From: an uncultured delta proteobacterium
Lineage (GTDB): Bacteria > Myxococcota > Myxococcia > Myxococcales > Myxococcaceae
DNA: 64,000 bases
Reading direction: 5' to 3'
Assembly (NCBI GenBank): GCA_963771175.1
Contig: CAVYSY010000027.1
Coordinates: 32,001-96,000, forward strand
In this document: piece by piece, positions 1,085-56,030 of the stretch
Position numbering within the stretch: position 1 is the stretch's first letter
Layout of the letters: every line of letters begins with the position of its first letter
Translations under genes and position numbers: made by a program
The notes under the pieces: model-generated
What the model was told of the DNA's origin: nothing
What the model saw: the letters and a program-made list of their open reading frames with translations, nothing else
Databases searched by the model: none

Positions 1085-3272
1085 GTGCAACAGAGCCTGA
1101 AGCCGGCGATCGCCGCGCTGTCGCTGATGCTGCCCCTGACGTCACAGGCCAGTGCCAAGGGCGCCGTGCCCCCGCCGTCCGTCGCGGCGAAGAAGCCCGT
1201 GGTGGACACCTACCACGGCGTGAAGGTCGACGACCCGTACCAGTGGCTCGAGAAGAAGATCGACGACCCCGAGGTCCGCCAGTGGGTGGACGGGCAGACC
1301 GCGCACATGCGCGCGGTGCTCGACAAGCTGCCCTCGCGCGACGCCATCCGCGCGCGCCTCACCACGCTGATGACCCACAAGTCACCGGCTCACTTCGCCC
1401 TGGTGCGGAAGGGCGGCGTCTTCTTCGCGATGAAGTTCCAACCGCCCAGGCAGCAGCCCATGCTGGTGGTGCTGCCCTCGCTGGAGGACCCCTCCACGGC
1501 GCGCGTGCTGGTGGACCCGGTGGAGCTGGACCCGAGCGGAAAGACCACCATCGACTTCTTCGTCCCCTCGCCGGACGGCAAGAAGGTGGCCGTGTCGATG
1601 TCGAAGAATGGCACGGAGAGCGGTGACGTCACCGTCTACGACGTGGCCACCGGCAAGGTGCTGCCCGGCGAGGTGGTGCCCCGGGTGAACGGCGGCACCG
1701 CGGGCGGCAGCCTCACGTGGAACGGGGATGGCTCGGGCTTCTTCTACACGCGCTACCCGCGCGGCGAGGAGCGCCCGGCCGAGGACCGCGACTTCTTCCA
1801 GCAGGTGTACTTCCACAAGCTCGGCACGCCGACGGACACGGACACCTACGAGCTGGGCAAGGAGGCCCCGCGCATCGCCAACTACGAGCTCAAGACGTCC
1901 GAGGATGGCGCGTACGTGCTCGCCGTCCTGGGCAACGGCGACGGCGGCGAGTACTCGCTCCACCTGCGCGGGCCGCAGGGCACCTGGGCGCGGCTCTCGA
2001 CGTTCGAAGACAAGCTCATCGGCGCGGCCTTCGGGCAGGACGGTGCGCTCTACGCGCTCTCGCGCAAGGACGCGCCGCGCGGCAAGGTGCTGCGCATTCC
2101 GCTCGCCACGCCGTCGCTCGACAAGGCCACCGTCCTCGTCCCCGAGGGAGAGGCCTCCATCGCCGGCTTCCGCCCCACCGCCACCCGCCTCTACGTGATG
2201 GAGCAGCTCGGCGGCCCCTCGCGGATGCGCATGATGGGCCTGGACGGCAAGGACCTGGGCGTGGTGCCCACCCCGCCCGTCTCCTCCGCGGGCGGCGTGG
2301 TGCCCCTGGGCGGTGACGACGTGCTCCTGTTCAACAGCAGCTACACCGAGCCGCTCTCCGTGTACCGCTACGGCGCCAAGGACGGGAAGCTGGAGAAGAC
2401 GGCGCTGGGCCGCACCTCGCCCGTGGACACCCGCGACGTGGTGGTGGACCGCGTCATGTGCACGTCCAAGGACGGCACCCAGGTGCCGCTCAACATCCTC
2501 CACGCGCGCGGCGCGAAGCTGAACGGCAACAACCCCACGCTCCTCACCGGCTACGGCGGCTTCAACATCTCCCTCTCCCCGGGCCTCAACCCGCCTCAAC
2601 TTCGCCTTCATCGAGCAGGGCGGCGTGGTGGCCATCGCCAACCTGCGCGGCGGCGGCGAGTTCGGCGAGGAGTGGCACGCCAACGGCTCGCTGACGAAGA
2701 AGCAGAACGTCTTCGACGACTTCCACGCCTGCGCGAAGCTGCTGGTGGACAAGAAGTGGACGAAGCCCGAGCGCCTCGCCATCCAGGGCGGCAGCAACGG
2801 CGGCCTGCTCATGGGCGCGGCGCTCACCCAGCACCCGGAGCTGTACCGCACCGTGCTCGCGCACGTGGGCCTCTACGACATGCTGCGCGTGGAGCTCACG
2901 CCCAACGGCCAGTTCAACATCACCGAGTACGGGACGGTGAAGAACCCCGAGCAGTTCCAGGCCCTGTATGCCTATTCGCCCTACCACCAGGTGAAGGACG
3001 GGGTGAAGTACCCCTCGGTGCTCTTCACCTCGGGCGAGAACGACCCGCGCGTCGACCCGTTCCACTCGCGCAAGATGGTGGCCCGGCTGCAGGCGGCCAC
3101 GGGCTCCAAGCGCCCGGTGCTGCTGCGCACCAACAACATGGGCCACGGCCTGGGCACGCCGCTGGCCGAGTCCATCGAGGAGAAGGTGGACATCTACGCC
3201 TTCCTCTTCCACGAGCTGGGCATGAAGTACCGGCCGGTGGACGGCAAGGTGTCCGCCCCCGCGGCGAAGTAA
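1085..3272 (+). CDS. Secreted prolyl oligopeptidase (S9A); frameshift near 2590
   Basis: Signal peptide, DPYQWLE, YGGF, LRGGGEFG, GGSNGGLL nucleophile motif, DPRV, GHG; two ORFs joined by a 1-nt indel. Confidence 0.9.
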
Positions 3273-4437: not shown

Positions 4438-5167
4438 ATGACCGAGAACATGAAGGGACTGCTCCTTGATGACCGCTGGGCGCCCATCACTTCGGGAGAT
4501 GGGATTTCTGGAGACTGATGCGGAACATGCCGCTCGCGCCTTCGCGGCGTGGCAGGCAGGGCTGCAGGCGCCCCGTGGCATCGCCGTGGAAGTGCGCCCG
4601 GTCTCGGGCTCCCTGGAGCAGGCCCTCTCGTCCCTGCTGCCAATGACCAGTCCAGAGACACGGCGATACCTCTTCATTCCGACACGAAGCCCCTGGACGG
4701 CGTACGTCGAAAACGGGTGGGGCGGGACCGATGCCGCGAGCGCTATGTCCTACATGGCCCGGACACTTGGCTGCCGGGGCATGCGTGTGGTCGCCGTGCC
4801 CCACACCCTCCGGAAGGACAAAGGCCGCTATGGCGCCGTGATGCTTGAGGTGTACGGCCCACATCGGACAGCATGGCTCAACTACGTTCGGACCCTGGGC
4901 GCGTCCAATGACGGGGGCCGCTGGGTCTTCGACCAATCCGGCGAGCCCTTCCCCTTCGAGAAGCTGGAGCAGTACCAGGCACGCCGGGTGAGGGACCGGT
5001 TCACGTTCGACATGCTCAAGGAGTACCTGCGTCACCTGGGGCTGTCGCCCTTCGAGGAGGACTTCTACCTGCCGCAGGGCACCCCCGCCTGGCTGGTGGA
5101 GAAGACAGGGACGTTCGTCCCCGCTCAGACGGAGTACGCCCTGGCCCAGGCTCGGGAGCACTTCTGA
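4438..5167 (+). CDS. Putative immunity protein for the upstream toxin; frameshift near 4495
   Basis: Starts 16 nt after the toxin stop with a GGAAGG RBS; MTENMKGLLLDDRWAPITS joins EMGFLETD.. after removing one G; position is typical of immunity genes. Confidence 0.55.
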
Positions 5168-5195
5168 CACAGGGTCTGAAGGAACTTTCCTCGGC

Positions 5196-6724
5196 TCAGG
5201 CGCTCGGCTTCTTCTTCTGCTCACGCAACTCGCCATAGAGCGAGACGCGGCCGGCCACCGTGCCCGCAACCACGTTCTCCAGCGGGCGCAGCGCCCGAGG
5301 CAGCGGCAGCACCGCCCTCATTCGCCGCCGCACCTCGTCCTCCACCAGGCCTCGCAGCACCTCGGACTGCACCCGCCCCAGCGTGGCGGCCACCACGTAG
5401 GGCTCTGTTCCACGGGTGCCTCCTCCGGCCGCACCACCTTCATGTGGTGCACCGCCAGGTCATAGAAGCTCCGCCGCGCGCACTCGTCGTCCTCGAAGGG
5501 GAACTCCCCTCCGAGCGCCTTGCCCACGGCCAGCCCCGAGGTGAATGCCATCTCGTGCCCGGAGATGAGCCCCGTGTACTCCCCGCAAAAGTAGGTGCGC
5601 CGCTTGCCCTGGATGCGGTGCAGCTCCGACGAACGCACCGCATGCACCCCGTCGAATACCAGGTGCTGCCAGTGCTTCGTCTCCACCACCTTCGCCGGGT
5701 CGATCAGCCCCTCGGGCGGATTGCACGTGGCGAACAGGTCCTCGCCTCCCACCCAGTCCTGCAGGTCCGGCAGGTAGTAGTTGTAGTGCGCCCGCTCGAA
5801 GGGTCCCCGCGCCTCCGGCGTGACGTACGTGTACGCCGCCCACAGGCTCCGGTCCTCCGGCATTACCCGCGCATCCGTGTGCAGCACGATGGTCGCCGGC
5901 TCGTACTCCACCTCGCCGAGCAGCAGCGCCTCGTCCGAGGAGGGGTCGTCCAACAGCTTCAGCGCCGTGCCCGCCTCCGTGGCCAGGACCACCTGGTCGA
6001 ACCGGTGCACCGAGCCGTCCATGCACGTCAGCGTCACCCCGTCCCGCTCGCGGCGGATGGAGCGGACCCCACAGCCCGTGCGCACGCTCGATGCGAAGCA
6101 CGCGGACAGCCGCCGCACGTACTCGCGCGAGCCCTGCTTCACCGTGCGCCACGGCGTAGGCCCCACCAGCGAGTAGCCGCTCACCGGCCCGAAGGTGGCC
6201 GCCACCATGAACATCGACATCCGCAACAGGCCGATGCGCGTGACGAAGAGGACCGACAGCAGCGGCGCCAGCACCTTGTGCTTGAAGTCCTCCGAGTACC
6301 CCTCCTGCTCCAGGTACTGCTCCACCGTCAGGGGCATGTACTTCTTCGGGTGGGAGACGATCTCCGGCAGCGCGAGCTGGAAGCGGTCCACCTCGTGCCG
6401 AACGGACTCCCAGAACGCCGAGTCCCGCCCCGTGCGCCAGTGGCCACCCTGAAAATGGATGGACAGCTCCAGGCCCCGGCGCATCGGCTGCGTCTCCACG
6501 CCCAGCCGCCGGAAGAGCGCCGACAGGTTCGGATACACCCACTCGTGGTAGATGAGGAACCCGATGTCCACCGGCACCGTGCGGCCACCGCGCGTCACCT
6601 CCGCGGTGTGCGCATGGCCTCCCAGCACCGGCGACGCCTCGAAGAGCGTCACCTGATGCTGGCGGTTCAGGCTGTAGGCGGCGCCCATCCCCGCGATGCC
6701 GCCGCCCACGACGGCGACCTTCAC
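5196..6724 (-). CDS. FAD-dependent oxidoreductase (amine-oxidase fold, COG2907-like fatty-acyl modifying family); frameshift near 5400
   Basis: VAVVGGGIAGMGAA, FEASPVLGGHAHT, VDIGF, YPNL, QGKRRTYFCGEY; GTG start overlaps the FAAL stop. Confidence 0.8.
5208..5232. repeat. Right copy of the 25-bp imperfect direct repeat, inside the last codons of the oxidoreductase gene
   Basis: 23/25 match to 3367-3391. Confidence 0.8.
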
Positions 6725-8473
6725 GCAGCCTCCTCCATCAGCGGCTGCAGGCTGCGCTCCAGGTACGCGCGCTTCGCGGCCTGCCGTTGAATCTTGCCGC
6801 TGGACGTCTTGGGGATGCTCCCCGGCTTGAGGAACATCAGGTCGTGCAGCCGGAGCTGGTACGCGTCGTTGATGGCCTGACGCACCGTGTCCGTCGCCGC
6901 CTGGACGTCGAAGGCCGCGCCGCCCTGCTGCTGCTTCGTGTCCACCTCCGCCACCACCACCAGCCGCTCCTCGCCCTCCACCTCCACCGAGAAGGCCGCG
7001 CCACACCCCGGCCGCACCGCCGGCAGCGCCGCCTCCACCGTCCACTCGAGGTCCTGCGGGTAGTGGTTCTGCCCGCCGATGATGATGAGGTCCTTCCTGC
7101 GGCCGGTGATGTACAGCAGCCCGTCTCGCATGAAGCCCAGGTCTCCCGTGCGCAGCCACGTGCGGGAGTCATCCCCGCGGATGCGCGCGCGGAACGTCTC
7201 CTCGGACAGCTCCGGCTTCCGCCAGTAGCCCTGCGCCACGCTGGGTCCATACACCCAGATCTCCCCCACTCGCCCCTCCGGCAGGGGGTCGCGGGACTCC
7301 GGCTCCACGATGGCCAGGCCGTAGCCCTCCTGGGACTCGCCGCAGGAGACGATCTCCGCGGCGTTGGCGTCGCCCGCGGGCAGCGGCACCACCCGGTCCT
7401 CCTTGAGGGCCTCCTTGTCCACGCTCAGCGTCACCACGCCGCGCCCCTGCGCGCCCGGCGCCTTCAGCGTCGCCTCCGCGAGGCCGAACACCGGGAAGAG
7501 CGCCGCCGGGGAGAAGCCCCGGGGAGCAGAACGTCTCGATGAAGCGCCGCATGGTGCCCGCGCGCACCGGCTCGGCGCCGCAGTACGCGCTGCGCCACGA
7601 GGACAAATCCAATGCGGCCAGGGCCTCCGGCGTCGCCTTGCGCACGCACAGCTCGTAGCCGAAGTTGGGCCCTCCCGAGTGCGTCACCTTGAAGGCCGTC
7701 ACCGCCTGGAGCCAGCGCAGCGGGTGCTTGAGGAAGTCCGCCGGGGACATCAGGTACACCGGGTAGCCCGAGTAGAAGCCCTCCATCAGCCCGTCCACGA
7801 GCCCCATGTCGTGGAAGGACGGCAGCCACGTCACCGAGCACGAGTCCTCGCCCAGCTTCACGCTGCCCTGGATGTGGGCGACGTTGGCCAGCAGGTTGCC
7901 GTGGCTCACCATCACCCCCTTGGGCGACGAGGTGGAGCCCGAGGTGTACTGAAGGAAGGCGAGCTGCTCGCTCCGGACGCTGGCCGGAGACTCCAGCGCC
8001 GTCACGCCCAGGTCCTCCTGGTCGGTGGCCAGCCACTTCAGCTCCGCCAGGCCGGGCACCTGCTCGGCGAAGGCCGCCGCCATGGCGCAGATGTCGACGG
8101 TGGACAGCACCACCTTCGGGCGGCAGTCCGCGATGATGCCCAGCAGCCGGCCCAGGGTGCGCTCCAGCCGGGTGGGGTCCGGCGGGTAGGCCGGCACCGC
8201 CACCGTGCCCGCGTAGAGGCAGCCCAGGAAGGCCTCCACGTATTCCGCCCCCTGGGGGTAGAGCAGCAGCGCGCGCTCGCCCTCCACGCCGTGGGCCTTC
8301 AGCAGCGCGGCGATGGTGCGGGCCCGTTGATCCAACCCCGCGTAGGAGTGCGCCTTGCGCTCCTCGGTGCCACGCACGATGAAGGTGAGGGCCCTGCGCT
8401 CCGGATGGCGCTCGGCGCGACGATGAAGGATTTGCGCGAGCGATGTCGCGCCCGAGATGCAGTCAGAAGCCAT
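6721..8473 (-). CDS. Fatty acyl-AMP ligase (FAAL); frameshift near 7528
   Basis: AFLQYTSGSTSSPKGVMVSHGNL, WLPSFHDMGL, GGPNFGY, GAEPV, FGLAEATL, WLRTGDLGF, GRRKDLII, NHYPQDLE, IPKTSSGKIQR. Confidence 0.92.
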
Positions 8474-8506
8474 GGGGGTACTCCAATCCGAGAGGAGGGG
8501 GGTTCT

Positions 8507-9673
8507 CTACTGACGGGGAGGAAGCGGCGTGCCGTCGTTGCCATCCGAGATGCCGATGGCATTGGCGTACTCCTCATATCCGGCGGCGGGCCGCTCCGCC
8601 TTGCCGGCGGCGAGCTGCTCCCGGAAGCGCGGCACCGCGTCCACGTAGGAGCGGACCACGCCCACCGCGCGCAGCAGGCGGATGAAGAGGAAGGCCATGT
8701 CGAGCTGCGACGGCACCAGCCGCAGGTTGGCCGAGCGGGGGAACTTGTGGTGGTTGTTGTGCCACTCGGAGGCGAAGACGCCGTAGAAGACCTGGTTGAG
8801 GGCCAGCGTCCGATCGTCGAACTCCCAGCCCGGCATCTTCGCCCGCGGCCACCAGCCACCATGGCCGACGAAGTTGAAGTCGCGGATGAGGCAGGTGACG
8901 AAGCACACCGCCGCGTACCAGGCCAGCACGCACGGCACGCCGCCCACCGCATACGCCAACCCGGCCCACAGCACCTGCGCGACGAGCATGCGCACCGCGA
9001 GATGCCCGGCGTGCTCCACCGTCCCCGTGCGCCGGAACTGCTCATAGGTGCTGATGGGAAAGCCGATGTGGCTCACCGTCCTCGCCAGGTGCTCGTACTG
9101 CACCGGCGTCATGTCGGTGTTGAGCTTCGTCACCGACTCGATGGCCAGGTAGCTGGCGAGGCGTCCCAGGTGCGGGCCGTACGGGTCCCCCACCCTATCC
9201 GAGCGCTGGTGGTGCACCCGGTGGGGAATGGCGTAGGTGTCCTCGCGGACGGTCATGCCGTTGAGCCACAGGAAGACGCGCGCCAGCCAGGGGTAGCGGA
9301 ACTCGAAGGCCTTGTGCGAGCAGTAGCGGTGCAGCCACGCCGTGTGCGTCACCGTGGCCAGGAAGAAGGCGGAGACGGAGAAGTAGAGGGCGCTCTTCCA
9401 CGACAGGTGCCAGCCCACGAACGCCACCAGGCACCCCATCGTCGACAGATGGAAGAGCACGTGCAGCGCGGCCGGCAGCCGGCGGAGGTCGGCGAGGAAG
9501 TTCACCGCGCTCCACCACTCGCGCAGCGCCTCGCCCACGGTGGGCTTCTTCGGCGTGCCCTCCGGTGTGGCCCACCCGAAGACAGGCTCCTGGAGGACCC
9601 AGCCCGCCTTGTTGCCCACGGGCGAGGACGGCTCCCCCTCCTCGGAGAGCAACCGCCGGGCCGCCTCAGCCAT
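8507..9673 (-). CDS. Membrane-bound fatty acid desaturase (delta9-type His boxes)
   Basis: HRYCSH, HRVHHQRSD..GDP, WHNNHHKFP; hydrophobic helices. Confidence 0.9.
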   Translation of the reverse strand: MAEAARRLLSEEGEPSSPVGNKAGWVLQEPVFGWATPEGTPKKPTVGEALREWWSAVNFLADLRRLPAALHVLFHLSTMGCLVAFVGWHLSWKSALYFSVSAFFLATVTHTAWLHRYCSHKAFEFRYPWLARVFLWLNGMTVREDTYAIPHRVHHQRSDRVGDPYGPHLGRLASYLAIESVTKLNTDMTPVQYEHLARTVSHIGFPISTYEQFRRTGTVEHAGHLAVRMLVAQVLWAGLAYAVGGVPCVLAWYAAVCFVTCLIRDFNFVGHGGWWPRAKMPGWEFDDRTLALNQVFYGVFASEWHNNHHKFPRSANLRLVPSQLDMAFLFIRLLRAVGVVRSYVDAVPRFREQLAAGKAERPAAGYEEYANAIGISDGNDGTPLPPRQ

Positions 9674-10403
9674 TGGCCCAGCCCTCGCGCCAGCTCACGA
9701 TGCGCGCACCGCACACCTTCTCGAACTTGCGCTTCATCTGCAGCACGGTGGTGAAGTCGTTCTCCACCGCCACCGGCAGCTCGCACACGTGCCAGCCGTA
9801 GTGCTTGAAGTTGCTGGCTGCCCGCAGCACCTCGGGCTTCAGCTCCGGCTTGCGCTCCAGCAGCTTGGTGAGAATCTGGTAGCCGCCCTCCGCGTGGCGG
9901 AACTCGTCCACGGAGATGAAGTTCAGCAGCTTCGCCAGCACCTTCTCCTGGCACTGCGCCGCGAGCTGCCGGGCGAAATAGCCCGCCGCGTGCTCGGACC
10001 AGATGAAGTTCACCAGCTCCTGGACGGTGTCCTCGGGCTTGAAGTTGACGTGCTCGATGTTGCGCTTGCGGATCTCCACCAACTCCTCGTCGGTGATGCG
10101 CGGCTCGCAGCCCACGATGTCCAGGTAGCGCCGCAGGCTCCAGAAGTGCCGGAAGCCCTCGAAGCACTCCACCTGGAAGACCGAGGTGGCATCCACGTCC
10201 TCGTGGAGCAGCTTGATGAGCGAGACGGTGCCCAGCGCGTGGTAGGACTCGATGAGGGCCGTGCGCCGCACCTTGTCCAGGATGTCCGGCTGGCTCAGCG
10301 CGACCTCGCGGTCGATGTCCCCCCAGGGGATGTCCTTCTCCACGTTCCAGCGCGACTCCGACTTGGCGCCGAAGAAATCGTAATAGTAACGCTCCGTCGT
10401 CAT
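9666..10403 (-). CDS. Ferritin-like diiron protein (acyl-ACP desaturase/AurF-like fold)
   Basis: RW..DIPW..ID start, ALIES, FEGFRH, SEH, VDEFRH; ATGA overlap with the upstream gene. Confidence 0.75.
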   Translation of the reverse strand: MTTERYYYDFFGAKSESRWNVEKDIPWGDIDREVALSQPDILDKVRRTALIESYHALGTVSLIKLLHEDVDATSVFQVECFEGFRHFWSLRRYLDIVGCEPRITDEELVEIRKRNIEHVNFKPEDTVQELVNFIWSEHAAGYFARQLAAQCQEKVLAKLLNFISVDEFRHAEGGYQILTKLLERKPELKPEVLRAASNFKHYGWHVCELPVAVENDFTTVLQMKRKFEKVCGARIVSWREGWANG

Positions 10404-11377
10404 GGCATCCGCTCCGTGGAAGGAATCACTTCGCGCCACGCCGCGGGATCCGTCCCGTGGTACGCGACGAACGCCGCCACCCAGCGCTCCAGCCCGAAGG
10501 CGATACAGCCCGTGCTGGCCTGCTGCCCGTCCGGCAGGGAGAGGCCGAAGGTGCGGGAGAACGAGTCCCCGTGCAGGTTGAAGGAGGCGATCGCGAGGTC
10601 TCCTCCCTTCTGCCCGGTGACGTCCACCAACAGCTCGTACTTGAGCGACTGCGCCCGCTGCAGCAGCGTGCGCGCCCGGCCCTCCACCGCTCCGAAGAAC
10701 GGGTCCGAGGCCACGTCGATGCGCCCGGAGAGGCCGTGCGCCCTGGCGAACTCCACCACCTCCAGCAGCAGCTTCTCGCGCAGGCTGGCGATGGGCGCCT
10801 CGGGCCCCAGCAGGACGATCTCCCGCATGGTGAACTCCCACTGCCGGCGCAGCGGGGCGAACTCCCCGTGCTCGTAGCGGAAGCACCGGCCCTGGGTGGT
10901 GAGCACCATCGGCTCGCCGGTGATGGCGCGCCCCTCGAGCTCCGCGTAGCAGTGGTAGCAGACGGCGCCGGACAGCACCGCGCCCGACGAGCGCACCCGG
11001 GAGGCAGCCGTCGCCTCCACCCGCTCGCCCCCCTTCACCGCGTCCACGAACTGGCGCAGGGACGCGGTGTCCCGGTCCAGGCACATGGCGAAGGTGGCGT
11101 GGTGCGGGAAGGACTTGAAGTAGTCCGTCCGCTCCATCACCGAGATGGGCATCAGCGTGGGGTACTGGCGCTCGGAGGCGCCGTGCTTGAACGCCAGCTC
11201 GAGGAACTTGCGCTCGAAGTAGCGGAACAGCCACAGCGCGGGGCCGGACATGCCCAGCGTGCCGTTCTCGTACGAGCGCAGGTCTCCCCGCTCCAGCAAC
11301 TGGCCCACCGCCTCCGGCCGGGGCGAGCGGCCCGAGCTGAAGGCGAGGCTCTTCGGGTCCACCGTCAGGGAGCTCAC
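10400..11377 (-). CDS. Amino acid:[carrier protein] ligase (class II SerRS-like catalytic domain without tRNA-binding domain)
   Basis: YFKSFPH, AVCYHCY, CFRYE (motif 2), FTMRE, ASDPFF, KYELL, IASFNLH, TGCIAFGLER (motif 3); about 325 aa; GTGA overlap with the ACP gene. Confidence 0.85.
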   Translation of the reverse strand: MSSLTVDPKSLAFSSGRSPRPEAVGQLLERGDLRSYENGTLGMSGPALWLFRYFERKFLELAFKHGASERQYPTLMPISVMERTDYFKSFPHHATFAMCLDRDTASLRQFVDAVKGGERVEATAASRVRSSGAVLSGAVCYHCYAELEGRAITGEPMVLTTQGRCFRYEHGEFAPLRRQWEFTMREIVLLGPEAPIASLREKLLLEVVEFARAHGLSGRIDVASDPFFGAVEGRARTLLQRAQSLKYELLVDVTGQKGGDLAIASFNLHGDSFSRTFGLSLPDGQQASTGCIAFGLERWVAAFVAYHGTDPAAWREVIPSTERMP

Positions 11378-11637
11378 GCCTTCGCCTCCCCACCCGGGCA
11401 GAACGTGTCGGCGATGATCCGCGGCGTGCGGAAGTAGTTCATCGTCAGCTTGTCCTCGGGCACCTCGATGGAGAGCTCGCTCTCGATGAAGCCCATCAGG
11501 TCGATGATGCGCATCGAGTTGATGAGGCGATTCTCGAACAGCGCGGTGTCCCGGCCGATGTCCGCGGTGATGCCGTTCTCCACGCACAGCTTGCGAATGA
11601 AGGCGAGCAGCCGCTCCTCGAACTGATTCCTGTCCAT
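11374..11637 (-). CDS. Acyl/aminoacyl carrier protein
   Basis: 87 aa, acidic; LFENRLINSMRIIDLMGFIESELSI (Ppant Ser) and NYFRT. Confidence 0.85.
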   Translation of the reverse strand: MDRNQFEERLLAFIRKLCVENGITADIGRDTALFENRLINSMRIIDLMGFIESELSIEVPEDKLTMNYFRTPRIIADTFCPGGEAKA

Positions 11638-11650
11638 GGTGTGTCCCTCG

Positions 11651-12778
11651 TCAGCTCCGGTTACGTCCCCAGTCGGTGGCCACGCCGTGGCGCAGCACGT
11701 CGCGCAGCAACTGCGTCGCGGGCGGCGGCTTCACCCGCTCGCCGAGCAGCGTGTGCACGGGCCGGGCGTCGAACACCTGGGAGGCCAGCAGGTGCCCGTA
11801 CATGGTGTCCCCGAGCCGGACGACCTCGTGGGACTGCTTGTTCTGCGTCTGCAGCAGCGTGCGCCGCAGCAGCGTGTACGTGTCCTCGTCGACGATGTCC
11901 GGCGGGAGGAAGACCCCCTGGGCCCAGCGCCGCTCCGTCTCCGCGGACACCTCGGTCATGATGTCGATGAAGTCCCGCAGCCGCAGGCCCTCGTCCCCGT
12001 TGCCGATGTGGAAGGTGCGGCCCGGCTGGTAGTGCTCCAGGAAGAGCGTGAGCAGGGCGGAGGCCGCGTAGTCGTTGGACGACAGGTCCATCCGCGAGTC
12101 GTCGGTGCCCGGCAAGGCGCCCACGTGCCCCTGGTAGAAGAGCCGCATGAGCGAGTGCATGGAGTTGTACCGGGTCACCTCGCCGCTATCCCGGCCGATG
12201 AGGTAGGCCAGCCGGTACATGGCGATGGGCAGCTCCTTCATCAGCCCGCGCACGAAGTGCTCCGCCTCGTACTTGCTCTGCTCGTACGGGTTGACGAAGC
12301 CCGCCTCGTGCACCTCGTCCGTCTCCAGGAAGCGGCCCTTGCGGTGGCCCGCCACGAAGAGGGTGCTCACGTAGCCGACGCGCTCCAGCCGGCGGAAGGT
12401 GCGCACCACCTCGAAGACATGGCGCGTGCCGTCCACGTTGGCCAGCCGCGCCTCCGGCAGCGGAGCGTCCAGCTCCACGTTGGCCGCCGAGTGGATGACG
12501 TGCGTCACCTCGTCCGCCAGCCGCGCCGCGTCCTCCGGCGACAGCCCCAGCCCGGGCCGGGTGATGTCGCCCAGCACGGGCACGAACTGGCCCTCGGGCG
12601 GGCGCGTCGAGGCATCCGGCCACAGCTTCGCCGCCAGCTTCGACCAGCGGGCCTTGAGCACCACGGGCGAGGGGGCCCGGATGAGCGCGTACACCCGCGC
12701 CTTCGGCGTGTTGCGGGCGATCCAGCGCGCCATCTCCATACCGACGGCGCCGGTGATTCCAGTCAGGAACAGGTTCAT
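11651..12778 (-). CDS. Stand-alone thioester reductase / fatty acyl reductase-like extended SDR
   Basis: FLTGITGAVG, GDITRPGLGL, IHSAANV, NVDGT, YVSTLFVAG, YEQSK. Confidence 0.85.
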   Translation of the reverse strand: MNLFLTGITGAVGMEMARWIARNTPKARVYALIRAPSPVVLKARWSKLAAKLWPDASTRPPEGQFVPVLGDITRPGLGLSPEDAARLADEVTHVIHSAANVELDAPLPEARLANVDGTRHVFEVVRTFRRLERVGYVSTLFVAGHRKGRFLETDEVHEAGFVNPYEQSKYEAEHFVRGLMKELPIAMYRLAYLIGRDSGEVTRYNSMHSLMRLFYQGHVGALPGTDDSRMDLSSNDYAASALLTLFLEHYQPGRTFHIGNGDEGLRLRDFIDIMTEVSAETERRWAQGVFLPPDIVDEDTYTLLRRTLLQTQNKQSHEVVRLGDTMYGHLLASQVFDARPVHTLLGERVKPPPATQLLRDVLRHGVATDWGRNRS

Positions 12779-12811
12779 GGTGTGGGAGGTTCCGTGGGGG
12801 GGGCGCGTGCG

Positions 12812-13790
12812 TCAGATCCGCACGATGCTGCAGCCCCAGTGCGCGCCGAGCCCGAAGGAGAACATCATCACGTGGTCGCCCTTCTTCACCAGGCCCTGGT
12901 CGATGACGTCCTTGAGGTTGATCCAATTGTCCGCCGCCACCGAGTGGCCCTTGGGACGGATGTTCTCCGTGTAGATCTTCTCCAGGGGGATGCCGGTGAA
13001 CTTGCTGAGGATCTCCCAGCTCCGCAGGCTGACGTTGTGGGGGATGAGGAGCTTGATGTCCTCGCGAGCCAGCCCGCTGGCCTTGAAGGTCTTCTCCAGC
13101 ACGCGCTTGCCGGTGGGGAAGTAGGCGGCGAGCAGCTCGTTCTGGTGGCCGTCCGGGTCCCAGTAATAGCCGCGGGTGAGCGTGTGGTACGTCTTGAGCT
13201 GGAGGCCCTCGGGATCGCGCGACAGCAGCACCGCGCACGCCGAGTCGCTGCAGACGTTGTAGACGACCTCGCGCTTGATGCCGTCGGGGAAGACGTCCGC
13301 GTTGACGCAGAGGGCGTACTTCAGGTCCTCCATCTCCATGACGGCGTGGGCCAGCCACACCGCGTGGGACAGGGAGACGCAGCCCAGCTCGCTCAGGCCC
13401 ACCGTGCGCGCGTTGGACAGGCCCAGCTCGTCCTGGAGGCGCGTGCTGGAGAAGCGGAACAGCCCCAGGTGCGCGTTGTCCCCCGAGGGGTACTCGGCGA
13501 GCGAGTCGCCACGCGGCACCAGCGAGCTGGTGGGCAGCACGCTCGCGTTGATGAGCAGCCCCACCTCCAGCGGATCCACCCCGTGACGCTCCAGCAGCGC
13601 CTTGAGGGTCGTCGAAGCGAGCTGCGTGGCCGGCACATTCGACACCCGGCAGTCGCCGAAGCCGAAGTCCGCGCATCGTCTCGGGCGTGCTGACGAGGCG
13701 CCCCTCTTCCGCGAGTTGCTCGAGGCCGACCTGCCGCTCGGGCAGCGTGTAGTGGATACCGTGGATGCGAATGGTCGAGGACGGATTCAT
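12812..13790 (-). CDS. 3-oxoacyl-ACP synthase III-like condensing enzyme; frameshift near 13670
   Basis: ELGCVS (Cys), SDSACAVLL, IPHNV, GHSVAAD, FGLGAHWG; ATGA overlap with the PPTase gene. Confidence 0.85.
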
Positions 13791-14434
13791 GAGCGCACGA
13801 TGGCCAGCAGGTGGTGGTGCAGGGCCAGGAAGGTGAAGGCGAACTCGCGGGAAACGGGCTGACGCAGTCGGAGCACGCCCTCGCCGAGCTCGGGCTCCAG
13901 GGCGCGCAACGGAAGGGGCTCCGGCGGGCGGAGGGCCTTGTAGAGCGCCTCCTTCAGCAGCCACAGCCGCGGGGCCAGCTCCGGCTCCCGCTCGCAGCGG
14001 GCCCGCTCGGCGGGAGTAAGGAAGAAGTGCCACAGCCGCTCGGGGATGGGGGCCACCGGCTCCACGTCCACGCCCACCTGGCCGCGCGAGGTGACGGCCG
14101 CCACCGACAGGCCGCGCCCGTGGCTGAGCGACACCTCCAGGCGCCGCGAGCCCTCCGGCACGTGCAGCCGGGGCTCTCCCTGGGGGCCCGGCAGCACCTC
14201 CACGTGGCTCGGCGGACACTCCGGGCCGAGCAGCTCCCGAGCCACCTGCTTGCACACCCGGCGCCCGCGGAGCCACTCGTGCTGGCGAGGGCCGGGCAAC
14301 GCGGAGAGGACGTCCCGCTCGCGCTCGGACAGGAGCTCCCACCCGAGCGGCGAGGCCGGAGCCGGCGCCAGGACGCCGACGCCCACCTCATCCCAGCAGA
14401 GGAAGGAACCCCCCTCCGGAGCAGAGAGCGTCAT
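13787..14434 (-). CDS. 4'-phosphopantetheinyl transferase (Sfp-like)
   Basis: GEPRL, VSLSHG, VGVDVE, WLLKEALYKA; start approximate. Confidence 0.85.
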   Translation of the reverse strand: MTLSAPEGGSFLCWDEVGVGVLAPAPASPLGWELLSERERDVLSALPGPRQHEWLRGRRVCKQVARELLGPECPPSHVEVLPGPQGEPRLHVPEGSRRLEVSLSHGRGLSVAAVTSRGQVGVDVEPVAPIPERLWHFFLTPAERARCEREPELAPRLWLLKEALYKALRPPEPLPLRALEPELGEGVLRLRQPVSREFAFTFLALHHHLLAIVRS

Positions 14435-14532
14435 GCCTTGCATTACTCCGGGTTGCATAATTGGTGTGTAGAGTACACTTCGCCGACAAGCAAGGCCCCC
14501 CTGATTTTTCAGTCAAACCGGAGAGATTGACA
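14435..14532. promoter_or_regulatory. AT-enriched divergent promoter region of the lipid cluster
   Basis: Between divergent starts; small inverted repeat gtgta-gag-tacac (14466-14478). Confidence 0.4.
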
Positions 14533-14931
14533 TTGCCTGAAAACAACATCTTCGCGCGCATCGTTCGAGGAGAGATTCCCTGTCACAAGGTGTGGGAGGA
14601 CGAGCGGCACCTGGCCTTCCTGGACATCCGGCCGGTGCAGCCCGGACACACGCTGGTGATTCCGAAGGCGGACGGGGACTACCTGTTCGACCTGGAGCCC
14701 CAGCGGTACGGGGAGCTGATGCAGGCGGTGCGCACGGTGGCGCGGCTGCTCAAGGAGCGCACCGGGTGCCAGCGCGTGGTGGAGGTGGTGCTGGGCTACG
14801 AGGTGCCTCACGCCCACGTGCACCTGATTCCCACCGACTCCATGGCGGACCTGCCGCCCATCCTCGGCACTCCGGCGGAGCAGGCGGACCTGGCGGCCAT
14901 GGCGGCGCGCCTGCGAGGCCCGGGCAAATGA
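14533..14931 (+). CDS. HIT family hydrolase
   Basis: IFARIVRGEIP, AFLDIRP..PGHTLVIPK, HAHVHLIP histidine triad; TTG start after GGAGAG. Confidence 0.92.
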   Translation: MPENNIFARIVRGEIPCHKVWEDERHLAFLDIRPVQPGHTLVIPKADGDYLFDLEPQRYGELMQAVRTVARLLKERTGCQRVVEVVLGYEVPHAHVHLIPTDSMADLPPILGTPAEQADLAAMAARLRGPGK

Positions 14932-15179
14932 CGCCCTCCACGAAGACGGCGGAGGACATCCAGCGCTGGCTGGTGGAGCGCGTGGCGGGCTTCCTGGAGC
15001 TGACGCCCGCGGACATCGACGTGCGGGCGCCCTTCCAGCACTACGGGTTGGACTCGATGGAGCAGCTGCGCATCATCGGCGAGCTGGAGACGTGGCTGCA
15101 GCGGGAGTTCGAGGAGACGCTGCTGCGCCAGTACCCCACCATCGAGTCGGTGGCGGCCTTCCTGGCGAAGGCCGCCTGA
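14928..15179 (+). CDS. Stand-alone acyl carrier protein (FAAL/PKS type)
   Basis: IQRWLVERVA..YGLDSM..LETWL..YPTIESVAAFLA; ATGA overlap with HIT. Confidence 0.88.
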   Translation: MTPSTKTAEDIQRWLVERVAGFLELTPADIDVRAPFQHYGLDSMEQLRIIGELETWLQREFEETLLRQYPTIESVAAFLAKAA

Positions 15180-15239
15180 GGCCCGAGCGCCGCGCGGGGG
15201 CTTCGGCACGAGGAAGTGCCGGAGCCCACCGGGCGAGAC

Positions 15240-17077
15240 TCATGCCGCGCGCGTGTCGCCACTCTTCTCGGCGTCGCGGTACAGCTCCTCCAGCGCCTCG
15301 CCGAACTTCTTGAGCACGTTGCGGCGCTTGAGCTTGAGCGACGGCGTCAGCATGTCGTTGGCGGTGGTGAAGTCCTCGCTGATGAGCAGGAAGCGCTGCG
15401 GCTTCTCGTAGCCCTTGAGCCCGCGTGGACAGCTCGTTGATCTGCTCGCGGTAGAGCTGCTGCACCTCGGGCCGCTTGAGCAGCTCGGGGATGGAGGTGG
15501 TGTCGAGGCCCTTCTCGCTGGCCCACTTCTTCAGCGCCTCCATGTCCGGGACGATGATCGCCACGTTGAAGGGCTTGTTCTGCGCCGTGCATCATCACGT
15601 TGGCGATGACGGGCGAGAGCTTGCAGCGCCTGCTCGATGGGCACCGGCACCACGTACTTGCCGTTCTCCAGCTTGTACTGCTCCTTGATGCGGCCGGTGA
15701 TGTAGAGGAAGCCGTCGTCGTCGAGGTAGCCCATGTCGCCGGTGCGGAAGCCGCCGTCGCCGGTGAAGACCTTCGCGTTCTCCTCGGGCAGGTTGTAGTA
15801 GCCCATCATCACGTTGTGGCCGTAGACGACGATCTCGCCCTGCTCGGCGTCGCCGGTCGCGGCGCGTGTCGATCTCGACGCGCACGCCGGGGATGGCCTT
15901 GCCGACCGAGCCGATCTTGCCGGTGGCCCGGGTAGTTCGCGGTGGCGATGGGGCGACGTCTCGGTGAGGCCGTAGCCCTCGTAGACGGTGATGCCGAGGT
16001 TGTCGATGAACTCGGCGACCTCGCGCGAGATCGCCGCGCCGCCGCAGAAGGCGTACTTCAGCCGGCCGCCGAAGCGCTCGCGCACCTTGGAGAAGACGAC
16101 CTTGTCGAAGACGGCGTGCTGCAGGTCCAGCAGCACGCTGCTCTGCTGCCCTGCGCCGCGAGCTGCCTTGCGCTGCTTGGCCGCCATCCGAGGCCGCGCG
16201 TGAAGAGCATGCGCTTGATGGCCGACTCGGCGGCCATGCGCTTCTGCAGCCCGTCGTAGATGCGGTTGAAGATGCGCGGCACCGAGAAGAGCAGCGTGGG
16301 CTTCACCTCGGCGAGGTTGTCGATGATCTTCTCGACGCTCTCGGCGATGCCCATCGAGGCGCCCATGGAGAACAGGCCGTGGAGCTCGACGACCTGCCCG
16401 AAGGAGTGCGCCCACGGGAGGAAGGACGAGCGAGCGATCCTCCAGGTCATGCGGGAAGATCTCGTGCATGGCGCGTCACGTTGCGCGCGAGGTTCGCGTG
16501 GCTGAGCATCACGCCCTTGGGGTTGCCGGTGGTGCCCGAGGTGTAGATGAGGCCGGCCAGGTCCGCGGGCTTGGGCTGGGTGAGCACGGGGCTGGGCGTC
16601 TCCGCGCCGCGGCGCAGCAGGCACGCGATAGGAGTCCGTCTCGGTCTCGGTGCCGGAGAAGCGGATGATGTGCTCGAGCTTGGGCAGCGGCCGGCTTGAG
16701 CGCCTCGAGCTTGGCGGCGATGGCGTCGGTGGCGGCGAACACCACCTTGGCGCCGCAGTCATTGAGGATGTACTGCCACTCCTTGTCGAGCTGCTGCTCG
16801 TACATGGGCACGTAGGCGGCCCCCAGCGTGTACGACGGCATAGGCGCCCACCGCCCACTCGTGCCGGTTGTTGGAGATGACCGCCACCCGATCACCCGTG
16901 CGTCACGCCGAGCTGGGACAGACCTCCGCGCAGGTCGTCCACGAGCTGGCCGAACCGCGCATAGGACATCCACGTCCACTGCCCGTTCTTCTTCTCCCCG
17001 AAGAGCGGCCGCGGGCCGAAGGAAGCGGTGCTCTGCAGGAAGATCTCGACCAACGTGTCGAACTTGGGGCTCGCCAT
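15240..17077 (-). CDS. Long-chain fatty acid-CoA ligase (AMP-binding); several frameshifts
   Basis: Fragments [70 protein letters not shown] in alternating frames. Confidence 0.85.
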
Positions 17078-39474: not shown

Positions 39475-40533
39475 CTACGGGCGGCGCAGCTCGGGGAACG
39501 GAGAGGTCGGCGAGCAGTAGCGCCCGGTCACCAGGGACCAGCACACGTTGCCCCGCATCCACGCCTTCATCCCGTCCACGTAGAAGGCCACCCGCGCATC
39601 GTCGAGCAGCCCCGACTGGAGCAGCCGCTCCTCGCACGCCTGGAAGCACTCCACGTCCGCGTTCACCACCTGGATGGCCTCGGCCACCGACTCCTCCAGG
39701 CCGAGCGCGTGGTGCACCTGCAGCACGTGGACGAGGTTGTTCGGGTTGCGGCTCCAGAGCACCTCCTTCTCATAGGAGAAGAGGTCGTTGCTCAGCGCCA
39801 CCACCCGGGTGCACAGCTCCCGCATCCGCCGCAGCTCGGGAGTCGCGAGCACGTGGCCGGGCAGCTCGCGCCCCTCCTGGGCGAACTCCACGAGGTCCAC
39901 GCACGTATACATGCCCGAGTCCTCGGCGCGCTGGGTGAGGTAGGCGTCGAAGTCGGGGACGGTGCCGGCCGTCCAGTGCCGCGAGGCCTGCAGCGTGCCC
40001 TGGAAGAGGTAGCTCTCCACGTCATCGGCGAAGCGCGACAGCCAGGACTCGCTGGCCAGGCGCTCCATGCGCCGACGGATGTCGTAGGTGAATCGCTCGA
40101 GCGGCCGGGCCCGGGTGCGCAGGGCCCCGCCACGCAGCACCTCCAGGCACGCCTCCATGTACTCCTGGAGGTACGCCGGCCGCTGGCCCACGTCGGCGCA
40201 CTCGTCGGCCTCGTCGTCGAAGAGGAACAGCCACACGTGCCAGTCGTTGCACAGCTCCAGCCGCTCCCGCGTCGCCTCCGGGTAGGCGTAGGCCGCGAGC
40301 AGGCCGAACTGGCTCGCATCGAAGCGCCGCAGCACCGACGGCACCCTCGGCAGCAGCTTCACCCCCAGCACCCGCGCCCGAGTGGCCTGCTCGATGTACC
40401 GGGCGTGCGGGCTCGGCTCCGAGGGCCAGGTGGAGGGAATCCGCAGCAGCGACAGGCTGGGACCCTGGAGAACGGGAACCTCTCTCGACGAGAAGGACTC
40501 ACCAGCGGGGACCAACTTCGCGGCGGGGAGCAT
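39475..40533 (-). CDS. Class I terpene cyclase
   Basis: LFDDEADE, SNDLFSYEKE (NSE triad), WSLVTGRY; AGGGAGG RBS. Confidence 0.92.
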   Translation of the reverse strand: MLPAAKLVPAGESFSSREVPVLQGPSLSLLRIPSTWPSEPSPHARYIEQATRARVLGVKLLPRVPSVLRRFDASQFGLLAAYAYPEATRERLELCNDWHVWLFLFDDEADECADVGQRPAYLQEYMEACLEVLRGGALRTRARPLERFTYDIRRRMERLASESWLSRFADDVESYLFQGTLQASRHWTAGTVPDFDAYLTQRAEDSGMYTCVDLVEFAQEGRELPGHVLATPELRRMRELCTRVVALSNDLFSYEKEVLWSRNPNNLVHVLQVHHALGLEESVAEAIQVVNADVECFQACEERLLQSGLLDDARVAFYVDGMKAWMRGNVCWSLVTGRYCSPTSPFPELRRP

Positions 40534-40866
40534 CGGAACCTCCCTGTGCGAGGTGCCCCTCCAGGCAGCACACCCGCTCATGAATAACTTTGACCTTCAC
40601 TATAATACTGAATTCAGGCTGTAAGAAACATCTTAATTTCTCAGTAGGGGAGAGCCCCCACATTGGGTGCTGATGTAGCCGGAGTGCCCCCAAGAACCGA
40701 GAGCGCAAGACTACTGGAGTTGGAGGTGAGCCACGACAACGTGACGAGCCAGGAGAGCCTCCGAGGTGTTGAGCACCGGATGGACCCGCATCCCAACATC
40801 GCCATCCGAAACAAATCCCCTCAGAGGCGAGGGCGGAGCACAAAAGTGCAGTGGCGGTGCTGCTTC

Positions 40867-53955: not shown

Positions 53956-54792
53956 CTATGGGGAGAAAGTAGCACCCACTCCCAGAGCCGGTGGCTGCGC
54001 AGGAGCAGGGGCCAGCAACGCATCAACGAACGCGCGGAACATCTTCACACGTGGGAGGTCGAGGGCCTCTTCGTCGATCCACCGGTTGTCCTGGAGCGAC
54101 ATCTGGATGGCTTTTCCGGGCCGAAGAACGGAGCCAATGGCTCCGACGATTGCCTTCCGCCGACCCGCTGGCTTCAGGAAGTCCACGAGGTCTTCCTTGG
54201 CGTACGGTGGGGTCTCGGCCTTCACGGAGTCGACATGGGTGCGCGCGGAAGCGAGGAGCTGGGGGTATTGCTTCTCCGCGCATTCGATGAGCAGGTCTTC
54301 GAGCGTACCAGCGCTCACATTGTCCGGAAGGACGAAGATTCCAATTCGAGGCGGGCCTTCGACCACCCGACCCGGGTCTACAGCCAGGGGGAGTTTCGCG
54401 TCGGCGAGTCCCTTCGAGATGGTGGCGAAGCGCTCGCTTGCCGACTTCTTCTGGTCGGAGTCGAGCACGATGCCGATGGCATGGAGCTCATCGGCCCCGG
54501 GCTGATCGACTGTGTTCCTGACGCGGATGGCACTGGTGAGCAGTTGACTGTCACCGGTCACCGCGTCGATGGCTACCGACACAGTGTCGTTCTGGAAGAA
54601 CGCCGGGACCTGCACGCGCTTCAGCAGGTCGGTTGACCCGAGCGGAGAGGGCCAACTGGTCGGCAGCAGCGGAACCCAGAACGGGGCGAGCTGGGGCTTG
54701 TGCTGGATCCGCTTTAGCCCCTGGAGCTTGAGGAACCGCGCCACGAACTCGACATCATGCGGACCCTCGACAGCGAAATAGACGTATCGCAT
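53956..54792 (-). CDS. TOPRIM-like protein (DUF3226/DUF4435-like)
   Basis: FAVEGPHD, IVLDSD, FVLPDN..GTLEDLL. Confidence 0.7.
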   Translation of the reverse strand: MRYVYFAVEGPHDVEFVARFLKLQGLKRIQHKPQLAPFWVPLLPTSWPSPLGSTDLLKRVQVPAFFQNDTVSVAIDAVTGDSQLLTSAIRVRNTVDQPGADELHAIGIVLDSDQKKSASERFATISKGLADAKLPLAVDPGRVVEGPPRIGIFVLPDNVSAGTLEDLLIECAEKQYPQLLASARTHVDSVKAETPPYAKEDLVDFLKPAGRRKAIVGAIGSVLRPGKAIQMSLQDNRWIDEEALDLPRVKMFRAFVDALLAPAPAQPPALGVGATFSP

Positions 54793-54795
54793 GGG

Positions 54796-55878
54796 CTATC
54801 GCACTTCGAGGCCGCGCTCGAACCGCATCCACTTGAGCTGCTCCTCACCGTAGCGCTTGACGACGCTCTGTCCCTCATGTCGGCCGAGCTTGAACGCGAC
54901 GACGTCCTCCTCGGGAGTCGTATCCGCGGCGAGCAGCGCGTCGATGGCTTCGAGGCTGTGCGTCGTCACGAAGAGCTGGACATCGAGCTCGCGACAGACG
55001 CGGACGAGCCAGGAATACACGCCACCCAGCGCGCTCACGTGGATGCCGGTCTCTATCTCGTCGATGAGCAGGAGGCCCCCCTTCGCTTTCACGACGGACT
55101 CAGCGAGGAGCAACGTGCGACGGATGCCGTCGCCATAGACGCTCAGTGGCACGGGCCCATACGTCGCATGTGTCACGTAGAGTACCGGCTCATCCTCGGG
55201 TTGCAGAATCTCGAGCCCCCGGATCTCCGGATCGAGGAGGGAGAGCAAGGTGGTCAGGTCCTGACTGGTGCCCTCCAGTCGAGCCTGGGAGTAGCCACGA
55301 ATGGGAACCGTTGGCATCCAGTGATGGTAGGCAAGTACCATCTCGCAGTGCGGCCCCCCGCTCTTCCGGCCAACTGAACCGATGTGCTCGCCCTGCCACA
55401 ACGTAAAGGTGTGCATCCTCTCATGGTCTGCCGTGCGAGATTCGATCTGAAGCTCGGCACCGGGAGTCTCGCGCTCCGGAGCACTGACCCTTCCTCGATA
55501 AACCGGGGGTTGCCGCATGGCAACCACTCGCTTGAACCTCGCCTTTATCGCCGTGATGGGAATCCGCCCTTCGGCGTTGATGACCACTTCCGCGCGATCA
55601 AGCTCAGGCAGCTCGCTCGGCGGGAAGAGCCACCTGAGCCGGTCGGTACGCGAAAGACGACGCAAGGGTATCTGCTGCGAGGGTTCCCGCTGTTGCGCAA
55701 GGCGGAGCCACCATGTCGGGTCGAGAGGTCGCGACATCAATGCGATGGCCTCGAGCACGCTCGTCTTCCCACTATCGTTCAGTCCGACAAGCAGGTTGAC
55801 GCGCCCCAGCTTCTCCAACTTCAGGTGGCGAAGGCCACGAAACGCCGTGATGTCGAGGTGCTCGATGGGAAGGGGCAT
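54796..55878 (-). CDS. AAA15/AAA21 ABC-like ATPase
   Basis: FRGL, GLNDSGKT (Walker A), YGDGIRR, LLIDEIETGIH (Walker B), TTHS. Confidence 0.88.
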   Translation of the reverse strand: MPLPIEHLDITAFRGLRHLKLEKLGRVNLLVGLNDSGKTSVLEAIALMSRPLDPTWWLRLAQQREPSQQIPLRRLSRTDRLRWLFPPSELPELDRAEVVINAEGRIPITAIKARFKRVVAMRQPPVYRGRVSAPERETPGAELQIESRTADHERMHTFTLWQGEHIGSVGRKSGGPHCEMVLAYHHWMPTVPIRGYSQARLEGTSQDLTTLLSLLDPEIRGLEILQPEDEPVLYVTHATYGPVPLSVYGDGIRRTLLLAESVVKAKGGLLLIDEIETGIHVSALGGVYSWLVRVCRELDVQLFVTTHSLEAIDALLAADTTPEEDVVAFKLGRHEGQSVVKRYGEEQLKWMRFERGLEVR

Positions 55879-56030
55879 GACGTCCTCGCCGGCCAGGAGC
55901 GTAGCGAAGGACCGACCCCGAACCGACCGGGATGGATCTTCGGTGGTTTGACGTGCGAGCGCCACATTTGCGTGTAGGCGAGCCGGGTCCTTGTTGACGT
56001 CTGGGGGGTTGACCGTGCGGAAGTGAGCCC

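Follow-up and report, generated by a model that had tools for sequence, protein, structure and literature searches.

The 64,000-nucleotide stretch analysed here, hereafter the window, covers positions 32,001 to 96,000 of contig CAVYSY010000027.1 in a draft Archangium assembly (9.8 Mb, 58 contigs, 81.7% complete), and the gene under study encodes a homologue of the amino acid:[carrier protein] ligases that lies on the minus strand beside the gene of a small acyl carrier protein (ACP), referred to here as ACP1. Both genes belong to a tightly packed operon of nine minus-strand genes, which runs from a phosphopantetheinyl transferase (PPTase) to a flavin amine oxidase. Judged from its sequence and from that of its relatives, the ligase is very likely a zinc-dependent, tRNA-independent enzyme that joins a small amino acid to ACP1 as a thioester. 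We propose, with a probability of about 0.6, that the pair serves a thiotemplated pathway in which the ligase stands in place of the adenylation domain of a nonribosomal peptide synthetase (NRPS) and ACP1 is the loading partner; if this is true, a descendant of a tRNA synthetase would replace such a domain in the synthesis of natural products or lipids. While the enzyme family and the pairing of ligase and carrier are already known, the context of a thiolase resembling ketoacyl-ACP synthase III (KAS III), a stand-alone thioester reductase and a diiron protein, and likewise a sister cassette of AurF type, was not found described in the literature that could be searched, from which subscription titles were mostly missing. 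The locus ties a well-separated ligase subfamily to fixed partners, namely a carrier, a diiron oxidase, a KAS III-like thiolase and a thioester reductase, and the conservation of this cassette makes the role of the amino acid:[carrier protein] ligase family directly testable.

The ligase and its carrier

The ligase (10400..11377, minus strand) comprises 325 residues from a GTG start and has a class II core derived from methanogen-type seryl-tRNA synthetase (SerRS). As described in the initial annotation, motif 2 (CFRYE, residues 165-169), motif 3 (GLER, residues 295-298) and a Cys/Glu/Cys set consisting of C140 (in AVC), E186 (in MRE) and C291 (in TGC) are all present. In an alignment of the window protein with 22 homologues (23 sequences), the residues C140, R167, E169, E186, C291 and R298 are invariant, and both motifs as well as the Cys/Glu/Cys residues align with the same residues of Bll0957 (PDB 3mey) and of the type-2 SerRS 3w3s. 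The Cys/Glu/Cys residues are said, in the 2010 work of Mocibob, to hold the active-site zinc, and in work of that year the amino acid:[carrier protein] ligases reportedly loaded carrier proteins in vitro.

The profile and structure comparison with amino acid:[carrier protein] ligases that had been suggested earlier was carried out and returned the NCBIfam model NF005479, “amino acid--[acyl-carrier-protein] ligase”, with 169.3 bits (E 9.4e-50), as opposed to 114 bits for the methanogen-type SerRS profile NF002120. The best solved match is Bll0957 (3mey, E 2.2e-33), followed by 3w3s (E 2.6e-20). Residues 47-318 of the ligase cover only positions 223-501 of the 518 in NF002120, and the aligned part of 3w3s is likewise restricted to chain residues 218-505. 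The matches are thus confined to the C-terminal, catalytic portion of the synthetase and, by these alignments, the ligase has no N-terminal tRNA-binding domain, as had been noted from the translation; the DNA upstream of the ligase start is taken up by the carrier gene in another frame.

The characterised proteins Bll0957 and Bll6282 from Bradyrhizobium and Atu2573 from Agrobacterium (Mocibob et al. 2010 and 2013) likewise consist of a methanogen-type SerRS core that is truncated, retains motifs 2 and 3 and is without a tRNA-binding domain, and the Cys/Glu/Cys set of Bll0957 is matched residue for residue in the window ligase, in an alignment limited to residues 65-316. The kinship with the Bradyrhizobium Gly:[carrier protein] ligases, which the initial annotation had pointed out, holds as homology and not as orthology, as the score of 169 bits compares with a curated cut-off of 357 bits for the Bll0957-type equivalog. 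The ligase is thus, on present scores, assigned to a divergent subfamily and is not an orthologue or equivalog of the characterised Gly or Ala enzymes. According to a 2022 review (PMC9437257), the family is zinc-dependent, dimeric and does not charge tRNA, and the biological role of carrier loading was still unknown. The ligase is present as a single copy in the genome, and 388 cluster representatives in a library of 1.84 billion match it at E <=1e-30; in a search of 151 genomes of the order, the relatives outside the window's own genome are only 33-36% identical, and no orthologues were added to those of the five Archangium loci. Pocket size is reportedly tuned by the second residue behind the second zinc Cys, which is Ala in Bll0957 and Gly in SerRS; if so, Ala293 of the window ligase (in TGCIAFG) hints at Gly or Ala as substrate. 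Some of the fused relatives described below have Gly at this position.

ACP1 (11374..11637, minus strand) is a cognate type II carrier of 87 residues, the predicted phosphopantetheine site of which is Ser41 in LINSM. The motif region reads LINSMRI, and Ser41 is invariant in an alignment of 11 carriers, made up of 10 operon-type carriers and ACP2, a second carrier of the locus. ACP1 gave no Pfam match at E 0.01. Its best solved relatives are PltL (E 1.3e-5) and CcbZ, from which it is less distant than from the partner carrier of Bll0957 (4h2s_C, E 0.0067), and its best NCBIfam match is DltC with 28 bits, below the cut-off. The initial annotation had read the motif as INSM and regarded it as a departure from the usual DS; the sequence was read correctly, whereas the oddity has to be given up. 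PltL has LNSM at the position of INSM, and the residue before the Ser in the 10 operon-type carriers is N in six (the window, L004, L006, L028, L048 and L078) and T in two, with one carrier each having R and S, as compared with D in ACP2. INSM is therefore ordinary for the subfamily of ACP1, in which most carriers have NS or TS.

The assignment of ACP1 to the ligase is based on the gene junction and on the architecture of the nearest relatives. The bases GTGA at 11377..11374 are common to the GTG start of the ligase and the TGA stop of ACP1, and an overlap of four bases between carrier stop and ligase start is found in each of the five Archangium loci whose junctions were compared (ATGA in four, GTGA in one), which supports the GTG as the true start of the ligase and confirms the overlap annotated earlier. 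The nearest relatives of the ligase outside Archangium are carrier-ligase fusions. Such fusions account for 6 of the 22 aligned homologues, four of which (P0011, P0012, P0013, P0015) are 47-48% and two (P0021, P0022) 39-41% identical to the ligase, and their N-terminal domain aligns with ACP1 over its whole length. Because of these fusions, ACP1 is taken to be the partner of the ligase, and by sequence it is the ligase's own carrier, so that this part of the initial annotation is borne out by both the fusions and the conserved overlap. For Bll0957, the complex with a separate carrier was solved (4h2s), whereas close relatives of the window ligase are instead fused to theirs. The boundary between the ACP1 and ligase genes of Archangium falls within the linker of the fused relatives, and a one-base change could therefore interconvert the split and the fused form.

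A cassette conserved in one ligase subfamily

In order to place the ligase in a wider context, related loci were collected by a pattern scan with one genome per species, which gave at least 596 related stretches among 600 matches, and the best 80 loci were kept. The gene context was counted by tblastn with the window proteins up to 6 kb from the ligase. A KAS III-like gene and a thioester reductase gene are both found near the ligase in 28 of the 80 loci, only part of the set in 7, several of which end at contig edges, and neither in 45. Among the 28 loci, 19 have the desaturase-like diiron protein of the window and 9 do not. An AurF-family gene (PF11583) stands beside the ligase instead in 10 of the 80 loci, namely these nine and L063. 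The hosts are mostly Gemmatimonadota, with some Myxococcota and Actinomycetota, one Acidobacteriota and one Melainabacteria genome.

A quick maximum likelihood tree was constructed from 79 ligases, L072 having been dropped on account of a stop codon and L080 because it was too short. The 35 ligases with cassette context, joined by 4 others, are separated from 40 ligases without cassette context by a branch that received 98% support in the Shimodaira-Hasegawa-like approximate likelihood ratio test. Support reaches 100% for a clade made up of the AurF-type ligases. The cassette label changes only three times on the tree, as compared with a mean of 26 after shuffling; since relatives share labels by descent, the tree shows coherence and not independent co-evolution. 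The initial annotation had expected the locus to supply a complete downstream context for the family. This is true of one subfamily, represented by the 28 loci on one side of the tree, and does not extend to the family, because the eight annotated loci without KAS III-like and reductase genes have different neighbours. In a Sorangium locus, for example, the ligase and its carrier are accompanied by a lysylphosphatidylglycerol (LPG)-synthase-like membrane protein, a hexapeptide acyltransferase and a GNAT protein, and in Streptomyces cellostaticus the neighbours are a carrier-thioesterase, a P450 and an NRPS.

The diiron gene (9666..10403, minus strand) directly follows the ligase, the stop of which overlaps its ATG (ATGA, 10403..10400), an overlap that is kept in four of the five Archangium loci. 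It encodes a ferritin-like diiron carboxylate protein of 245 residues that is closest to the soluble acyl-ACP desaturases, and its nearest relatives act on ACP-bound substrates. A profile of five sequences matched DesA2 of M. tuberculosis (1za0) in the PDB with E 9.3e-10, and an alignment of 20 sequences has E52, H86, E137, E167 and H170 without exception, and E79 and E82 almost without exception. In the AlphaFold model (predicted local distance difference test, pLDDT, 82.6), Foldseek placed stearoyl-ACP desaturases first, with template modelling (TM) scores of only 0.5-0.56, so that the reaction is not fixed by the fold; further matches were the R2-like ligand-binding oxidase R2lox (rank 9), beta subunits of class I ribonucleotide reductase and the azoxy synthase VlmB (rank 27). 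Acyl-ACP desaturases, DesA2 and the R2-like ligand-binding oxidases share a di-metal site in a four-helix bundle with the window protein, but are longer (about 330-360 residues as opposed to 245). A protein-atlas search with the diiron protein returned a mixture of ferritin-like families, including AurF and acyl-ACP desaturases, at 0.92-0.94, which serves as a lead only.

The reductase gene (11651..12778, minus strand) encodes a stand-alone short-chain dehydrogenase/reductase of the thioester reductase type with 375 residues. It matched Pfam NAD_binding_4 (PF07993) with 147.4 bits and NCBIfam TIGR01746 with 125.5 bits, below the cut-off of 213, and its translation contains TGITGAVG (TGxTGxxG) and YEQSK (YxxxK). 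The KAS III-like thiolase (12812..13790, minus strand) has the FabH fold, with 66.3 bits to Pfam ACP_syn_III_C and 64 bits to the FabH models, for which the cut-off is 249. The intact A. violaceum orthologue was modelled with AlphaFold from 26 sequences (pLDDT 87.6), and FabH, OleA and ChlB3 were found by Foldseek at TM scores of about 0.8. Cys137, Asn252 and His282 are invariant in the 26 sequences, and the catalytic Cys is kept.

A small COQ7/rubrerythrin-like ferritin is encoded in 24 loci, in cassettes of the desaturase-like and the AurF type alike. In a Gemmatimonadaceae locus (L045:12487-13353, plus strand), such a ferritin is fused to a C-terminal PP-binding carrier domain (E 3.3e-15), a fusion which suggests that the substrate of the COQ7-like protein, the second di-metal protein of these cassettes, is carrier-bound as well. 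Genes of radical SAM/SPASM, GNAT-like and MMPL transporter proteins were additionally observed by the core in L039, L044, L046, L061, L071 and other loci from Gemmatimonadota and Myxococcaceae, and these neighbours hint at the export of a lipid-like product.

Proposed pathway and alternative readings

In the pathway proposed here, the Sfp-type PPTase of the operon would turn ACP1 into its holo form, and the ligase would activate a small amino acid with ATP and load it onto the phosphopantetheine arm at Ser41. The diiron enzyme may then oxidise the carrier-bound amino acid by N-oxygenation, hydroxylation or desaturation; N-oxygenation is considered because an AurF-type gene replaces the desaturase-like diiron gene in otherwise equivalent cassettes. 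The KAS III-like thiolase could join the amino acid to an acyl chain, either in a Claisen-type C-C condensation or by acyl transfer, the chain being provided probably by the fatty acyl-AMP ligase (FAAL) of the operon via ACP2, or by malonyl-ACP. The stand-alone thioester reductase would free the product as an aldehyde or alcohol, and in most Archangium species a membrane desaturase and the flavin amine oxidase may tailor it. A lipid-like product is assumed because a FAAL, a second carrier and a membrane desaturase are present. For this order of events after loading, that is oxidation, joining, reductive release and tailoring, we put the odds at slightly under even.

The closest parallel is offered by the ham and pvf systems, in which, according to two articles (PMC11659414, PMC10194917), valine held on an adenylation-thiolation-reductase (A-T-R) NRPS is oxidised by the AurF homologue HamC or PvfB and the aldehyde is released by the reductase domain. 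These systems, with the enzymes HamC/PvfB and HamD/PvfC, yield fragin, valdiazen and pyrazine N-oxides. They share with the pathway proposed for the window a carrier-tethered amino acid, an adjoining ferritin-like diiron gene and release by a thioester reductase, the 10 sister cassettes having a true AurF-family gene beside the ligase, and one Gemmatimonadaceae locus has an SRPBCC cyclase-type gene, as described for hamE. The AurF-type swap in the sister loci suggests that the amino acid is oxidised while tethered, as happens in ham/pvf signalling. The window differs in that the loader is a class II synthetase homologue and not an adenylation domain, in that the three functions of loader, carrier and reductase are each encoded by a gene of their own and not combined in an A-T-R NRPS, in its additional KAS III-like thiolase, and in its diiron protein, which is desaturase-like and not AurF-like. 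By this comparison, the resemblance is one of shared logic, not of membership. A preprint on chalkophomycin describes a further case, in which a separate enzyme N-oxygenates a prolyl group on its ACP.

A second parallel is found in the pyrrole systems PltF/PltL/PltE and PigI/PigG/PigA with PigJ, which use a stand-alone carrier with an NSM motif like that of ACP1. In these systems, for example in prodigiosin formation, oxidation takes place on the carrier, and a ketosynthase subsequently receives the oxidised substrate. Their loader is an adenylation enzyme and their oxidant a flavoprotein, unlike those of the window, for which a proline substrate is not indicated. The neighbourhood of the window, with its KAS III-like, thioester reductase and diiron genes, also sets the ligase apart from the Bll0957-type ligases.

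A more far-reaching and rather speculative version is that the cassette represents a widespread, undescribed amino-lipid route in Gemmatimonadota, Myxococcota and Actinomycetota. In this version, the oxidised aminoacyl group would be condensed with a fatty acyl group by the thiolase and the thioester reduced, giving a long-chain amino alcohol or aldehyde, possibly a sphingoid-base-like or N-oxygenated lipid that is made without a pyridoxal phosphate-dependent condensing enzyme and without an NRPS. If true, this would be the first physiological role for an amino acid:[carrier protein] ligase.

Several observations weigh against the thiotemplated pathway. Loading, amino acid and product have all been deduced from sequence, and the score of the ligase is below half of the NF005479 cut-off, so that substrate and partners are not transferable from Bll0957. 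The diiron protein matched only FA_desaturase_2 in Pfam, below threshold, and gave no Pfam match to PF11583; the candidate assignment to the AurF family was rejected, as the comparison with an AurF-type neighbour by hhalign gave a probability of 0.67%, and its chemistry may therefore differ from N-oxygenation. In the KAS III-like protein, an invariant His occupies the position of FabH Asn274, and the position of FabH His244, which precedes an invariant Asn, is occupied by His in the window type or Gln in the AurF type; condensing enzymes and the acyltransferase ChlB3 are not separated by the fold search. Except in Archangium and the AurF-type loci, ACP2 and FAAL do not belong to the core, and the COQ7-like ferritin of other cassettes is missing from the window. 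Finally, compared with four Archangium loci, one-base insertions specific to the window are present in the KAS III-like gene at about 13669-13671 and in the FAAL gene at 7527.

The alternative that survives best, although improbable, is a Dlt-like transfer, in which the KAS III-like protein would move the amino acid, oxidised or not, from ACP1 to a hydroxyl or amine of a lipid or metabolite, and a separate substrate, fatty acyl-ACP2, would be left to the reductase. Such a role is in line with DltC as best NCBIfam match of ACP1, with the FabH-fold acyltransferase ChlB3 among the structural matches, with an active-site set that departs from condensing FabH, and with the acyltransferase-type neighbours of the Sorangium relatives. 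However, the reductase is tied to ACP1 and the ligase in 28 of the 80 loci, most of which have no FAAL or ACP2 homologue, and the KAS III-like protein has kept its catalytic Cys and a His/Asn pair, with which condensation is also compatible.

It is less probable still that the operon is decaying in the sequenced strain, the frameshifts being real and the ligase-carrier pair a remnant. In addition to the two insertions mentioned above, a long-chain acyl-CoA synthetase-like gene contains about 17 single-base insertions in 15418..16894, and none of these is present in the four Archangium genomes. In four public runs, however, contigs with about 99% identity to the window are without the extra bases: that at 7527 is absent from three of the four runs and that at 13671 from all four, and among the rows listed most insertions in 15418..16186 are absent from three or all four. 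Nearly all differences of the window are insertions, a pattern that fits systematic assembly error, whereas the ligase and ACP1 differ from the Archangium loci in frame only. The draft state of the assembly also speaks against decay, and other genes of the window look broken too. Genes for a prolyl oligopeptidase, OPT transporter and ABC ATPase appear only as pieces (stretches 2625..3272, 58491..59042 and 62482..62868). For the KAS III-like, FAAL and acyl-CoA synthetase genes, assembly error is the likely cause of the insertions; this is not proven, because the contigs of the runs need not come from the same strain.

Turning to the carrier itself, it is quite unlikely that the ligase charges ACP2, or both carriers, rather than ACP1 alone. 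ACP2 (14928..15179, plus strand; Pfam PP-binding, 47.7 bits) has the canonical DSM motif and belongs, at a distance of 3.3 kb, to the conserved block shared by the Archangium loci, and the initial annotation had raised the question by setting both carriers side by side. Against its charging, the fusion partner of the ligase relatives is of the ACP1 and not the ACP2 type, and the gene that overlaps the ligase in five of five loci is that of ACP1. ACP2 is only 26% identical to ACP1, and among the 80 loci those outside Archangium have no homologue of it beside the ligase at E 1e-5; it resembles the carriers of polyketide synthases and is more likely the acceptor of the FAAL. A working or antibiotic-resistant SerRS paralogue that charges tRNA is hardly credible: Pfam gives the class II core only (28.4 bits) and several public sources label relatives as “seryl-tRNA synthetase”, whereas the tRNA-binding domain is absent, the carrier-ligase family outscores SerRS and relatives are fused to a carrier protein.

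Other genes of the operon and the window

Apart from the ligase, ACP1 and their three partners, the operon contains four genes. The first gene of the operon (13787..14458, minus strand) encodes the Sfp-type 4'-phosphopantetheinyl transferase (Pfam ACPS, 48.7 bits, and 4PPT_N), homologues of which adjoin the cassette in several Gemmatimonadota loci. Its stop overlaps the start of the KAS III-like gene (ATGA, 13790..13787), which is followed by the reductase gene after 33 nt and, after a further gap of 13 nt, by ACP1. Behind the diiron gene, the end of which is overlapped by 8 nt from the ATG at 9673, lies the gene of a membrane fatty-acid-desaturase-like protein (8507..9673, minus strand) with histidine boxes and 55.8 bits to the NCBIfam DesA family, the cut-off of which is 400. 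After a gap of 33 nt follows the FAAL gene (6721..8473, minus strand), which is split into two frames in the assembly and matched NCBIfam PRK05850 with 231 bits in the N-terminal and 197 bits in the C-terminal part. Its stop overlaps the GTG at 6724 (GTGA) of the last gene of the operon, a flavin amine-oxidase-like oxidoreductase (5318..6724, minus strand; Pfam Amino_oxidase, 79.4 bits). The A. gephyra locus (L006) keeps the cassette and the FAAL and has no match to the membrane desaturase and the amine oxidase, which are therefore regarded as accessory genes of Archangium, and the genus accordingly has a longer and a shorter version of the operon. Promoter and terminator scans of 4800..15400 gave nothing exceeding shuffled sequences.

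Divergent from the operon lies a gene of the HIT family of hydrolases (14461..14931, plus strand; Pfam HIT, 72.3 bits), the stop of which is overlapped by the ATG of ACP2 (ATGA). The HIT gene is 86-95% identical in four Archangium loci (L003-L006), and L002 ends before it. Kept as a pair in L003-L006, HIT and ACP2 adjoin two adenylate-forming ligases; HIT enzymes hydrolyse acyl- and aminoacyl-adenylates. The long-chain acyl-CoA synthetase-like gene (15240..17077, minus strand, lower boundary approximate) converges on this pair and is spread over several frames. Its intact orthologue in L004 (4143-6113) encodes 656 residues and matched AMP-binding with 291 bits.

Two further observations concern the rest of the window. 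A family 2 terpene synthase gene (39475..40581, minus strand; E 8.2e-39) is unrelated to the ligase cassette. The sole stretch of low guanine-plus-cytosine content (0.63), at 53956..55965 on the minus strand, encodes an AAA_21/AAA_15 ATPase and a DUF3226 protein, which match PDC-M38A (219.6 bits) and PDC-M38B (42.9 bits), a pair listed by PADLOC as a defence candidate.

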